DNA of 64,000 nucleotides, taken from NCBI GenBank assembly GCA_965224165.1, contig CBDCYM010000011.1, forward strand, positions 1,522,877 through 1,586,876, read 5' to 3'. The position numbers and the translations under genes were made by a program. Of this stretch, positions 3,811 to 59,587 are shown piece by piece. Source of the DNA: Methyloligellaceae bacterium. GTDB lineage: Bacteria; Pseudomonadota; Alphaproteobacteria; Rhizobiales; CBDCYM01. Under the pieces are notes generated by a model that made no database searches, was not told where the DNA came from, and saw only the letters and a list, made by a program, of their open reading frames with translations. Position 1 is the stretch's first letter. Each line of letters starts with the position of its first letter.

Positions 3811-3857
3811 TATTGACAACAAGATTGTCATATATAAAATGACAACTTAATTGTCAA
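3811..3857. promoter_or_regulatory. Two adjacent inverted repeats of the form TGACAA-N4-TTGTCA (ATTGACAAcaagATTGTCAt and ATGACAACttaATTGTCAAT). These are candidate MarR operators in the marR promoter region.
   Basis: Read directly from the sequence 17-60 bp upstream of the marR start codon on the - strand. Confidence 0.4.
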
Positions 3858-3963
3858 TATGTGTGGAGTAACTATTTTGTCATGACCGTGAATTATCTAA
3901 GCGTAGATGAGACGACAGATATTTAGTGAGCAGAAAATTTTTGGCTATAATTATCGCTAATCG

Positions 3964-14881: not shown

Positions 14882-16270
14882 ATGAGTCAAACTGCTGCGT
14901 TAGAAACATTACAAGATTCAGACTCGGTTTCAGAAGCGACTGCAAAAGATGTCGCTGCGCCCACGCCTGTGGCTGAGCCTGCTGCAATCTCTACGACAGA
15001 AAAAGAGAAATTCATCCCCGTCACCCGTTTTGCGATTTTGGATAGGCTTGATCGTGAAGAGGTTTGGCGTGAGGGGGAGTATGAGTCGATACGCACGTTT
15101 TTAGCTTATTTCAATGCATGGCGTCATCAAGGCTATAGCGAGCAGTTGTTGAGACTCAAGGAAGCCTACCTTCCGTTCAGTCCGGATCGCGATACCGTCC
15201 GTGTTTTACGATACACCGACAAAGAAATGGCCAAAATGCAAAAGAGGGTCACCAAAGCCATTACTGAGCTTTTGACCCAGGCCAATTATCAAGAAATTAC
15301 ACAAGATGATATCAACGCATATTTTGCAGCAAAATCACCCTACAGTCTTGAGCTGAAAGTGGATTTAAGCGAGTTCGATGAGGTTATAGTTTTTTGCCGT
15401 GGTTCAGATAACATCACACGGTACCAGCGCACGGCTAAATCGCTTTATCTAAAAAAAGAAGCGCTTGAGATCCCTATTTTTCAACGGCTTTTCCTCCTCC
15501 TTAAATTGAAGCCGGAAGAAGAGCGTGTTCGGGAGATTATGAGTGCGAAAAGCGTTAATGAGGTTCGTGCCCGTAGGATCCTTCAGAAGAACAGAAAAAA
15601 TCTGCCTAAGAATGCCTCCCCAAACCATATTTATCTCAAACTTTTTAAACGTATTCATCAATCCGACTTGGAGATGTTGTTTCCGAACACCAAGGTAGCA
15701 TTTAAGCCTTTTGACAAAATAAAATTTGCAGTTACCGCAGGTGGTGGCACGGCCACAAGCATTGTCGGTATCATGACGAAAATATTCGCCGCAACCAATC
15801 CTATCGCTCTTCTGGGAGCACTCGCCGCATTGGGTGGGCTGATCTTCCGCCAGATCATGAGTTTTTTCAACCAACGTGCAAAATATATGATGGTGCTTGC
15901 GCAAAATCTTTACTTTCATAATTTGGCAAACAATCGCGGTGTCCTGACACTACTTGTGGATCGGGCAGAGGAGGAAGACGTAAAAGAAGACCTCCTGCTT
16001 TATGCGTATCTTTCCCAATATAAAGTGCCCAAACAGTGTCTGATGCAGGCGAAAATGGCGATTGAGCAATTTCTCGAAAATGAGTTTAACGTTTCGGTGG
16101 ATTATGACATTGAAGACTCTCTCGGACGGCTTTTGCATGATGGGCTTGTTAGAGAGACGGAAGATGGAGTGCTTACGTCCTTGCGTCCTCCAGAATGTGC
16201 TAAGCATCTTGAGACGCTCTGGAAAGAATGCGTGCAGAAAAAAATAGATGAACAGAACGGAGAAGGATAA
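14882..16270 (+). CDS. conserved hypothetical protein, 462 aa, with a Gly/Ala-rich transmembrane hairpin near residues 285-330 (possibly DUF3754/TMEM143-like)
   Basis: Clean long ORF with good codon usage and a hydrophobic segment AVTAGGGTATSIVGIMTKIFAATNPIALLGALAALGGLIF. Domain assignment is from memory and uncertain. Confidence 0.55.
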   Translation: MSQTAALETLQDSDSVSEATAKDVAAPTPVAEPAAISTTEKEKFIPVTRFAILDRLDREEVWREGEYESIRTFLAYFNAWRHQGYSEQLLRLKEAYLPFSPDRDTVRVLRYTDKEMAKMQKRVTKAITELLTQANYQEITQDDINAYFAAKSPYSLELKVDLSEFDEVIVFCRGSDNITRYQRTAKSLYLKKEALEIPIFQRLFLLLKLKPEEERVREIMSAKSVNEVRARRILQKNRKNLPKNASPNHIYLKLFKRIHQSDLEMLFPNTKVAFKPFDKIKFAVTAGGGTATSIVGIMTKIFAATNPIALLGALAALGGLIFRQIMSFFNQRAKYMMVLAQNLYFHNLANNRGVLTLLVDRAEEEDVKEDLLLYAYLSQYKVPKQCLMQAKMAIEQFLENEFNVSVDYDIEDSLGRLLHDGLVRETEDGVLTSLRPPECAKHLETLWKECVQKKIDEQNGEG

Positions 16271-17159
16271 GGCCTGCACGTTGTTTAAATTAAGTCTCAT
16301 TCTAGAAAGGGATGAGGCTAGAGCTTGGCAAATTGTTGATTTTCTTGAAGAAGTAATGGTGCCTTCAGCATCGGCCATAAGTCTGTTTGAGCAGGCCGAG
16401 AGAGCAATCCAGGTGGAGGCTTATTTTGAGAAAAAACCTGATCCGATAACATTTAGCGCAGATTTGAAAAATGAGTTGGGTTTTGTTATTTCCCCTTCTC
16501 TTATCCGTGTAGAAGCAGTTAAAGACCGAGGTTGGGTCGCAGAATTTGAACGCACGTTATTTCCTGTTCGCTCGGGACGTTTTCTAATTCATGGTAGTCA
16601 TCACCGTCATTGTGTGCTTGCCCTCAGAACCAAAATCGAAATAGATGCCGCCCAAGCATTTGGTACAGCTCATCATGGTACAACACAGGGCTGTCTTTTG
16701 GCTCTTGATAGGCTCATGCATGCGCATTTTTTCGAAACGATTTTAGATATTGGAACCGGAACAGGAGTGTTGGCCATAGCTGCGGCTAAAGCTCTACCAT
16801 CAGCATCGGTCATAGCGACCGATATTGATTCCATTGCTGTCGCTATCGCCCGTGAAAATTGTAAGAAAAACCAAGTCGCATCAAATGTGACCGTCATCAA
16901 AGCTGCAAACCTTCAACATCAGATGCTTCGTGCTTTGCCTCCCCATGACCTGATAATGGCGAATATTTTGGCTAACCCACTTCGCATGCTTGCCCAGGAC
17001 ATCACTAGGAAGCTCAAACGTGGAGGTTTTGCTATTCTTTCAGGCATGCTGGATGAGCAAGCTCGCTGGGTTTTTTCAGCCTATGGTCAGTTTGGTTTTT
17101 CTATGATGAAACGCATTTCATTAGATGGCTGGACAACACTGATCATAAGAAAGCGATAG
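16248..17159 (+). CDS. prmA: ribosomal protein L11 methyltransferase
   Basis: SAM motif ILDIGTGTGVLAIAAA, PrmA-like N-terminal region, about 300 aa. The start overlaps the upstream ORF by 23 nt. Confidence 0.85.
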   Translation: MNRTEKDKACTLFKLSLILERDEARAWQIVDFLEEVMVPSASAISLFEQAERAIQVEAYFEKKPDPITFSADLKNELGFVISPSLIRVEAVKDRGWVAEFERTLFPVRSGRFLIHGSHHRHCVLALRTKIEIDAAQAFGTAHHGTTQGCLLALDRLMHAHFFETILDIGTGTGVLAIAAAKALPSASVIATDIDSIAVAIARENCKKNQVASNVTVIKAANLQHQMLRALPPHDLIMANILANPLRMLAQDITRKLKRGGFAILSGMLDEQARWVFSAYGQFGFSMMKRISLDGWTTLIIRKR

Positions 17160-17166
17160 GTGACTA

Positions 17167-17279
17167 TCTCTAAATACTCCCTTCGGACCATCCACCATCT
17201 ACCATCCCCCGCCACCCGCCATATTCTGCGATAATTAGGCGGGTGCAGGGGATGGTAGATGGTGGATGGTTTTTAGAGG
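17167..17279. repeat. Long palindromic repeat element, copy 1 (family with copies 2 and 3 at 29171-29257 and 59424-59536)
   Basis: Shares the core gccacccgcc-atattctgcgataattag-gcgggtg with the other two copies. Both arms carry the same extra 'atctacc' segment relative to the other copies. The left arm has a tactcccttcgg segment that the right arm lacks. Confidence 0.85.
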
Positions 17280-17627
17280 TATCGAGGTGCCTACCATCCG
17301 TTAATCGACCTTCGTATAAAGGATTTATAGTCGTCGAAAGTAATGCGTTGTATTTTTGCACCCATTCAAATCATATTTGTATGTTGGTGCTCCGCAAGAA
17401 CTTGTCGCCGTCTTAAAATAAAATTAAACCTCTTCATGTAATTTGATTCAAACTTTACTTGACGACTCCTGGGGGGGGAGACATGGAAAATATGACACCG
17501 GGCGAACATAGCGACTATCCTGAGCATCCACTTGACGGACCTATCCCAACGGATTGAGAACCGGATAGTTCAAAATCAGGCGCTGCTGGGAAGCAGTGAT
17601 TGCAAATTGCAATAATAAAAACGGCTG

Positions 17628-28585: not shown

Positions 28586-29101
28586 CGTGTTTCCTAGCAG
28601 AATTTTTCCAGTTTAATAGGTGGATGTTGATATTTGAAGGTGAAGCTTAGGTGAGTATCACATCTAATGCAATTCAGAGTTGACGCGGAAGGGTTTTTCA
28701 TATCATAATCCAAATATAGATATGAACGGAGGTTTAAGAAAATGACCCCTCCAAAAAGGTTCGAGCTATCCTGAGCGTGCTTTATTACAGCTTTTCCTTA
28801 GGATGGCATAATATTCCATAAGAAAGATCTTTGCGAAAGTTTAACTCCGAACGTATGGTGGGAGAGTATGCTTGTGGTATAGTTCCGAATACATTCAATT
28901 TCCACCTTTTGTTTGGAGTGATGCTTGATAGACCTGATGTGATCAGGTGGGCCATATGAGGCAGTAGTTACAACGTATGCTGTGCTGACATGGGGTTATC
29001 CGGGCGGAGCAACGTAAAGGACCTGCAAAATCGCGAGAGGCCCGACATCACTGAGTTAGGACTGTATCAAACGTAAGGAATTCAGTAAAAGTCAAGGAGG
29101 G

Positions 29102-29138
29102 GGCCTCGTGAACATGGACTCACGAGGCCCTTTTCTTG
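29102..29138 (+). terminator. Rho-independent terminator-like hairpin (ggcctcgtga-N8-tcacgaggcc followed by CTTTTCTT) with no annotated + strand gene upstream
   Basis: 10-bp perfect stem plus a T-rich tract on the + strand only. It is preceded by about 500 bp with no credible ORF. Confidence 0.4.
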
Positions 29139-29170
29139 CAGTATTTTTATACGAGTTGGACATCTTTAAG

Positions 29171-29257
29171 AACCATCCACCACCCCCTGCCACCCGCCAT
29201 ATTCTGCGATAATTAGGCGGGTGGCAGGGGGTGGCCCGAAGGGAGTATTTAGAGATG
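29171..29257. repeat. Long palindromic repeat element, copy 2 (each arm differently truncated)
   Basis: The core ctgccacccgcc-atattctgcgataattag-gcgggtggcag is identical to copy 3. The right arm keeps cccgaagggagtatttagagatgccc. Confidence 0.85.
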
Positions 29258-29340
29258 CCCAGTTGATTTATACCAATCCAACCTACAAGCTTGCCGGAAA
29301 TAATTGACTATCGAGGTTATTTTGTACATTTGATCCTTAT

Positions 29341-59272: not shown

Positions 59273-59423
59273 TAGTGTGTTAAGATTGCCACGTCAGGTG
59301 TTGCAAGTGCAGAAACCTTGCTAACAGTATTGAAATCTACCACAAAAATTACTCTCTAAAACCAATTTGCCATTGATAATCAATAAGTTAGTGCTATTTG
59401 GCAATTAACAATACGATTGGATA

Positions 59424-59536
59424 CCTCTAAATACTCCCTTCGGGCCATCCACCATCCCCTGCCACCCGCCATATTCTGCGATAATTAGGCGGGTGGCAGG
59501 GGATGGTGGATGGCCCGAAGGGAGTATTTAGAGATG
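59424..59536. repeat. Long palindromic repeat element, copy 3. This is the most complete copy, with perfect 47-bp inverted arms around an 18-nt centre (atattctgcgataattag).
   Basis: The left arm tctctaaatactcccttcgggccatccaccatcccctgccacccgcc equals the reverse complement of the right arm. Confidence 0.9.
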
Positions 59537-59587
59537 CCCGATTAGACAACCCTTTACACCAAACAAGCGTTTGTTTAACATCGCTTT

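Follow-up and report, generated by a model that had tools for sequence, protein, structure and literature searches.

A putative, previously unrecorded palindromic MITE family from an alphaproteobacterium, with mirrored and unmirrored arm changes and a candidate role for short-patch template switching

Bacterial MITEs are recognised by their small size, their terminal inverted repeats and target-site duplications, a long stem-loop and their presence in several copies (PMC3184786). REPINs, another kind of hairpin-forming repeat, are described as travelling via single-stranded intermediates by an IS200-like mechanism (PMC3116915). The arms of inverted repeats can also be altered in place: template switching homogenises them through a single multi-nucleotide change, and the spacer between them can become inverted (PMC8604942); in E. 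coli it is a recognised source of mutational hotspots at quasipalindromes (PMC7202029). The window, that is, the whole 64-kb stretch of DNA analysed, holds three copies of a hairpin-forming element, located by pattern search and sequence comparison at about 17.2, 29.2 and 59.5 kb. The first of them extends beyond the limits of 17167–17279 given in the preliminary description, its true span being 17162–17284. The copies and their loop are as follows.

17162–17284: copy 1, palindromic MITE of 123 nt (left arm 17162–17220, loop 17221–17237, right arm 17238–17284)
29158–29260: copy 2, 103 nt, with the left arm in a short form, the right arm without one heptad, and a mirrored T>C
59419–59539: copy 3, 121 nt, with two heptads per arm; its arms agree over the 46 nt that separate each terminal hexamer from the loop
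17221–17237, + strand: loop or spacer of copy 1, ATATTCTGCGATAATTA, with the same sequence and the same orientation in all three copies

Read from either end, the element consists of a terminal hexamer, CTCTAAA, TACTCCCTTCGG, one to three heptads of the form ACCATCY, the inner stem CCCCTGCCACCCGCC and the 17-nt loop, after which the mirror image follows. Its arms are complementary from the CTCTAAA beside the ends up to the loop, so that terminal inverted repeats are present. The 34-nt core, which comprises the inner stem and the loop, is identical in the three copies, and in copy 3 arms of 60 nt show 90% complementarity. The terminal hexamers can differ within one element, as in copy 3 (GGATAC vs GGGCAT). 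Folding predictions give a single long hairpin for every copy, both as single-stranded DNA (dG of -41.6, -31.4 and -65.2 kcal/mol for copies 1, 2 and 3, with z of -11.8, -7.3 and -15.9) and as RNA of the + strand (-76.1, -57.9 and -111.1 kcal/mol).

On the + strand, the loop contains TGCGATAAT (17227–17235, 29205–29213 and 59477–59485), which resembles a rightward extended -10 promoter element, and + strand genes lie downstream of copies 2 and 3 (29520 and 59588), rightward of this -10-like sequence. GC skew is positive or near zero throughout positions 1–64000, without a strand switch; the three loops therefore share their orientation relative to replication, which at n=3 is not significant. 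A palindrome unrelated to the element, with 21-nt arms (TATTGACAACAAGATTGTCAT / ATGACAACTTAATTGTCAATA), lies at 3811–3859 between two - strand ORFs and looks operator- or terminator-like.

All three copies are intergenic, and each is flanked by short direct repeats.

17158–17161: left target-site duplication of copy 1, AGGT (five-nucleotide reading AGGTG, 17158–17162), overlapping the prmA stop codon
17285–17288: right target-site duplication of copy 1, AGGT (AGGTG, 17285–17289)
29154–29157 and 29261–29264: target-site duplications of copy 2, AGTT(G)
59415–59418 and 59540–59543: target-site duplications of copy 3, (C)GATT

These 5/5 direct repeats stand at matching offsets from the element ends in every copy, for which the chance is 0.004 per copy. 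Copy 1 begins 2 nt past the prmA stop codon TAG (17157–17159; prmA occupies 16248–17159 of the window). For annotation, it is worth recording that copy 1 was inserted at this stop codon and that the AGGT(G) duplication preserved it. Copy 2 sits about 20 nt after a terminator-like hairpin (29093–29138), and 48 nt separate the end of copy 3 from a downstream ORF that, from the look of its sequence, we take to be a putative TetR-type regulator. The hairpin before copy 2 has 19 pairs followed by a T-rich tail and lies in a stretch of about 900 nt without an ORF of at least 80 aa; it may mark a small gene or sRNA.

With 103–123 nt, the copies are far too short for a transposase gene. Stop codons interrupt most of the six frames, with two or three frames left open in each copy, and no protein relatives were found for the two open frames searched, including a search for ORFs running through other copies. 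The ten ORFs scanned in the 64-kb window included neither a transposase nor a RAYT gene; Pfam assigns domains of housekeeping or general function to eight of them and has no match for the other two. On account of its size, inverted repeats, duplications, stem-loop and several copies, we file the element as a MITE, and its variable duplications of 4–5 bp at all three copies argue for spread by ordinary staggered-cut transposition instead of fold-back copying. REPINs are not known to leave target-site duplications, and the duplications found here likewise argue against a REP/RAYT or IS200-type single-strand element.

Searches for further copies returned nothing that we accept as a relative. Patterns for a 27-nt core and a 19-nt arm had no match in 185,579 species genomes, two patterns had none in viral contigs, and copy 3 gave no blastn match against plasmids. 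No parent IS or other sequence sharing the ends of the element turned up in the genomes, metagenomes, viral contigs and plasmids covered. The 23-nt loop pattern GCCATATTCTGCGATAATTAGGC matched the JGI metagenomes once exactly, in Ga0163110_10187787 (L001 427–449), a marine-looking contig of 29.5% GC in which the match is not flanked by arms; well below 1 match of this kind would be expected. Since this match is armless and lies inside an ORF that we presume, by eye from its translation (...EPNYRRIWLD...), to be recF-like, we set it aside as a further copy and regard it as probably due to chance. The nearest PrmA relatives outside the source genome, including those in Methyloligellaceae and Hyphomicrobiaceae MAGs, are 47–48% identical; with the best of them at only 48%, the host is, as far as PrmA indicates, an isolated alphaproteobacterial lineage. 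The element itself is, judged by its sequence, a lineage-specific and almost fully palindromic bacterial MITE of a previously unrecorded family.

Other identities were considered and dropped. No copy matched Rfam at the gathering threshold. In E-value mode, 59423–59534 drew dozens of sub-threshold matches of up to 73 bits, nearly all of them to eukaryotic miRNA precursor models, which we reject as a generic artefact of a long perfect hairpin; membership of a curated RNA family is rejected with them. A terminator scan made no call on copy 1, copy 2 or copy 3. Copy 1 has TTTTT after the heptad stem and copy 3 is without a T-run. Termination may at most be a secondary property of copy 1 and is not supported as a property of the family. 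The possibility that the extra heptad of copy 1 derived from a flanking template or an older degenerate copy was also discarded: CTACCATCC at 17291–17299 equals the junction specific to copy 1 (17199–17207), which we judge to be chance, and alignments of the six flanks to the element were no better than those of shuffles (p 0.13–0.97, with p 0.17 for the right flank of copy 1).

The arms of the three copies are set out below in the direction from flank to loop, each right arm being given as its reverse complement. Event counts were taken from this manual alignment; automated pairwise arm alignments misplaced some gaps.

Left arm of copy 3: flank CGATT, hexamer GGATAC, then CTCTAAA, TACTCCCTTCGG, G CCATCC ACCATCCCC TGCCACCCGCC
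Right arm of copy 3: flank (AATC)G, hexamer GGGCAT, then CTCTAAA, TACTCCCTTCGG, G CCATCC ACCATCCCC TGCCACCCGCC
Left arm of copy 2: flank AGTT, hexamer GGACAT, then CTTTAAG, A, A CCATCC ACCACCCCC TGCCACCCGCC
Right arm of copy 2: flank AACT, hexamer GGGCAT, then CTCTAAA, TACTCCCTTCGG, G CC ACCCCC TGCCACCCGCC
Left arm of copy 1: flank AGGT, hexamer GACTAT, then CTCTAAA, TACTCCCTTCGG, A CCATCC ACCATCT ACCATCCCC CGCCACCCGCC
Right arm of copy 1: flank ACCT, hexamer CGATAC, then CTCTAAA, A, A CCATCC ACCATCT ACCATCCCC TG-CACCCGCC

Within copy 1, the segments compared between its arms are the following.

17175–17186, + strand: TACTCCCTTCGG, confined to the left arm, with a single A standing in its place on the right (CTCTAAA-A-ACCATCC)
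17187–17209, + strand: heptad tract of the left arm, ACCATCC-ACCATCT-ACCATCC(CC), with three units where copy 3 has two
17248–17270, + strand: right-arm heptad tract, the exact reverse complement of 17187–17209

The sequence ACCATCCACCATCTACCATCCCC stands at 17187–17209 of copy 1 and its exact complement at 17248–17270. A pattern search with GGGGATGGTAGATGGTGGATGGT matched 17248–17270 on the + strand and 17187–17209 on the - strand without a mismatch, which defines a perfectly complementary tract of 23 nt; 0.03 chance matches are expected for this pattern, and none of 100 shuffles gave two. Each arm of copy 3 has GCCATCCACCATCCCC, i.e. GCCATCC-ACCATCCCC, and each arm of copy 1 has ACCATCC-ACCATCT-ACCATCCCC, so that copy 1 exceeds copy 3 by 7 nt per arm (ACCATCT, equivalently ATCTACC) with the same C>T variant on both sides. 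The preliminary description had reported an extra atctacc segment on both arms of copy 1, which the 23-nt tract confirms, and had noted that the left arm keeps TACTCCCTTCGG and the right arm has lost it, which also holds, the right arm being shorter by a net 11 nt. What it called an indel is a change in the unit number of a tandem heptad, ACCATCY, and not an arbitrary insertion: counting left and right arms, copy 1 has 3+3 units, copy 2 has 2+1 and copy 3 has 2+2.

Three differences are mirrored between arms. One is the number of heptads, copy 1 having 3+3 and copy 3 having 2+2. The second is a T>C in ACCA(T/C)CCCC, present in both arms of copy 2 (ACCACCCCC / GGGGGTGG); it is derived by parsimony, since all four arms of copies 1 and 3 have T. 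The third concerns the pair beside the heptads, A:T in copy 1 where copy 3 has G:C. Changes without a mirrored counterpart are more numerous, at least six over the three copies. The left arm of copy 1 has a T>C of its own and the right arm a 1-nt deletion; the right arm of copy 1 and the left arm of copy 2 share an identical net 11-nt deletion; and copy 2 has lost one heptad from its right arm and has two substitutions in its left arm (CTTTAAG). In a simulation of independence, in which 7–12 independent substitutions were dropped on 3 x 2 x 46 stem positions, at least one mirrored pair arose with a probability of 0.02–0.07 and at least two with a probability of 1e-4 to 2e-3, the expectation being about 0.03 mirrored pairs per 8 substitutions. 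The low probability of two or more mirrored substitutions argues that the arms are not independent, and the earlier proposal that they change in concert stands on this value together with the mirrored heptad, the T>C of copy 2 and the A:T versus G:C pair.

How the arms came to change together is a separate question, for which the preliminary description had offered selection for the hairpin or the templating of one arm from the other. This choice omits a third reading, in which three heptads per arm are ancestral and were kept by copy 1, and the other arms lost the T-bearing unit independently by slippage. The additional 7 nt of copy 1 correspond precisely to one unit of a tandem repeat and are thus a slippage substrate, and loss from one arm only does occur, the right arm of copy 2 having lost a unit that its left arm keeps. 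Moreover, the direction of the heptad change is not polarisable from three copies, and three units could be ancestral. This history would nevertheless need four to five independent deletions (one in each arm of copy 3, one in the left arm of copy 2, and the loss of two units from the right arm of copy 2), each of them taking the T-bearing unit, against one gain, one templating event and one loss in the alternative. Nor does it account for the mirrored T>C of copy 2 or the A:T versus G:C pair (P <= 2e-3). We consider independent slippage losses rather unlikely as the source of the mirrored heptads.

Selection could act on the DNA, where the element may form a hairpin or cruciform, or on a structured RNA that serves as a terminator, an mRNA stabiliser or an RNase target; mutations that disrupt pairing would then be offset by independent second mutations favoured by selection. 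The folds predicted above are very stable for DNA and RNA alike, and copy 1, placed directly behind prmA, ends its right arm in the terminator-like GGATGGTTTTT. There are precedents in that compensatory changes are reported as common in REPIN hairpins (PMC3116915) and MITE RNAs can modulate mRNA stability (PMC3184786). However, in a stem of about 50 bp with a dG of -40 to -65 kcal/mol, a mismatch or a 7-nt bulge is cheap, so that selection on a single copy would be negligible, and copies 1 and 2 in fact tolerate bulges of 11, 7 and 1 nt as well as a mismatch. That the identical 7 nt, C>T variant included, were inserted a second time independently is very unlikely, and neither the consensus terminator scan, which did not call copies 1 or 3, nor the comparison with curated RNA families lends a function to the fold. 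Compensation under selection is therefore, in our estimate, an improbable origin of the mirrored changes. Of the two causes named in the preliminary description, templating is the more economical and, with slippage added to the comparison, it remains the most economical of the three.

If one arm is templated from the other, the question arises whether this belongs to the way the element propagates. The short arm is informative here. The form seen in the right arm of copy 1 recurs in the left arm of copy 2 (CTTTAAG-A-ACCATCC), so that a net one-arm deletion of 11 nt is common to the two copies, with the junction TAA(A/G)-A-ACC in both. The short arms can be arranged as a series, with CTCTAA-GG-ACC once ATACTCCCTTC is deleted, then CTTTAAGAACC in the left arm of copy 2 and then CTCTAAAAACC in the right arm of copy 1. 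Because copies 1 and 2 have the same short-arm junction, an asymmetric element appears to have been copied faithfully, and the arms are not regenerated in every round. Relative to the loop, the orientation of which is the same in both copies, the short arm is on the right-hand side in copy 1 and on the left-hand side in copy 2, which suggests that the loop was flipped with respect to the arms in one of them. We put this flip between copies 1 and 2 forward tentatively, as it would rest mainly on one character, the shared short arm. The hexamers agree with it in part: CGATAC of the right arm of copy 1 resembles GGATAC of the left arm of copy 3, and GACTAT of the left arm of copy 1 is ambiguous.

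Mirrored complex changes, the identity of the copy 3 arms over 46 nt and a loop that seems, between copies 1 and 2, to have flipped with respect to the short arm are what would be expected of fold-back (hairpin-primed) copying as a propagation step, in which one arm is templated in each round and loops flip and flop as at parvovirus termini. We nevertheless regard such a step as very improbable. Variable target-site duplications in three of three copies indicate that a double-stranded element was integrated at staggered cuts; the occurrence of one arm asymmetry in two copies means that asymmetry passes through copying; the terminal hexamers of copy 3 differ; and the perfect tract of copy 1 covers only a short stretch of about 24 nt inside the arm, bounded on the loop side by the T>C and a deleted C and on the outer side by the 11-nt indel. 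The suggestion that the symmetry is a clue to how these elements propagate is accordingly not upheld, given the 4–5 bp duplications of all three copies and the unchanged copying of asymmetric elements. Taken together, the duplications, the shared asymmetry and the bounded patch favour occasional copying of short patches between arms over the regeneration of whole arms.

Based on these considerations, we propose, with moderate confidence, that the element is a MITE whose mirrored arm changes come from occasional short-patch template switching at the quasipalindrome. In this hypothetical scenario, (i) a staggered-cutting transposase of the DDE type, with its gene at another place in the genome, would act on the MITE in trans; (ii) changes would start in one arm, as heptad slippage, point substitutions or the 11-nt deletion; (iii) during replication, the nascent strand would switch template within the quasipalindrome (a Ripley-type switch), so that a short patch is copied to the other arm; and (iv) perfect complementarity would thereby be restored and the arms would appear to change in concert. 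An intermolecular form of template switching inverts the spacer and would explain why the short arm stands on the right in copy 1 and on the left in copy 2. The mirrored heptad of copy 1 is then best explained as a by-product of palindrome maintenance and not as a trace of transposition.

A more novel possibility is that the family acts as a multi-copy reporter of very frequent switching within the palindrome, or that it multiplies by a hairpin-primed, rolling-hairpin-like step that resets symmetry and loop orientation; we give this only a slim chance. To our knowledge, neither a reporter of frequent arm homogenisation or flip-flop nor a hairpin-primed step has been described for a bacterial MITE. 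Under the preferred reading of occasional short-patch switching, the contribution is incremental and involves no new mode of propagation, as MITEs and template switching at quasipalindromes are both already established. The new MITE family offers a compact natural case in which mirrored multi-nucleotide arm changes stand beside unmirrored ones. If the genome has tens of copies, arm homogenisation and spacer inversion could be counted against ordinary mutation in a bacterial chromosome.

In comparison with described systems, the element resembles the Correia/NEMIS elements of Neisseria, ERIC of the Enterobacteriaceae, RUP of S. pneumoniae and Nezha of cyanobacteria in being noncoding and intergenic, about 100–130 bp long, folded into a long stem-loop, flanked by duplications and present in several copies (PMC3184786). 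It differs from Correia and ERIC in its duplications, AGGT, AGTT and GATT, which are variable and of 4–5 bp, against TA in those families. In contrast to the palindromic MITEs named, it has a variable tandem heptad in its arms, and searches of plasmids and genomes with the element sequence gave nothing. Foldback (FB) elements have long inverted arms that consist partly of short tandem repeats, the number of which varies between copies while the arms stay similar; with FB elements being eukaryotic and of kilobase scale, the likeness is one of analogy only. With REPINs, the element shares the nature of a hairpin-forming intergenic repeat in which compensatory changes across the hairpin are common (PMC3116915). 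The closest parallel for the arm changes themselves is Ripley template switching, which leaves the two signatures seen here, a complex indel mirrored on both arms and a loop that appears turned round with respect to the asymmetric arms. This process is known from short inverted repeats in genes and reporters of E. coli and yeast, whereas in the family described here it would act on the arms, about 50 nt long, of a mobile element.
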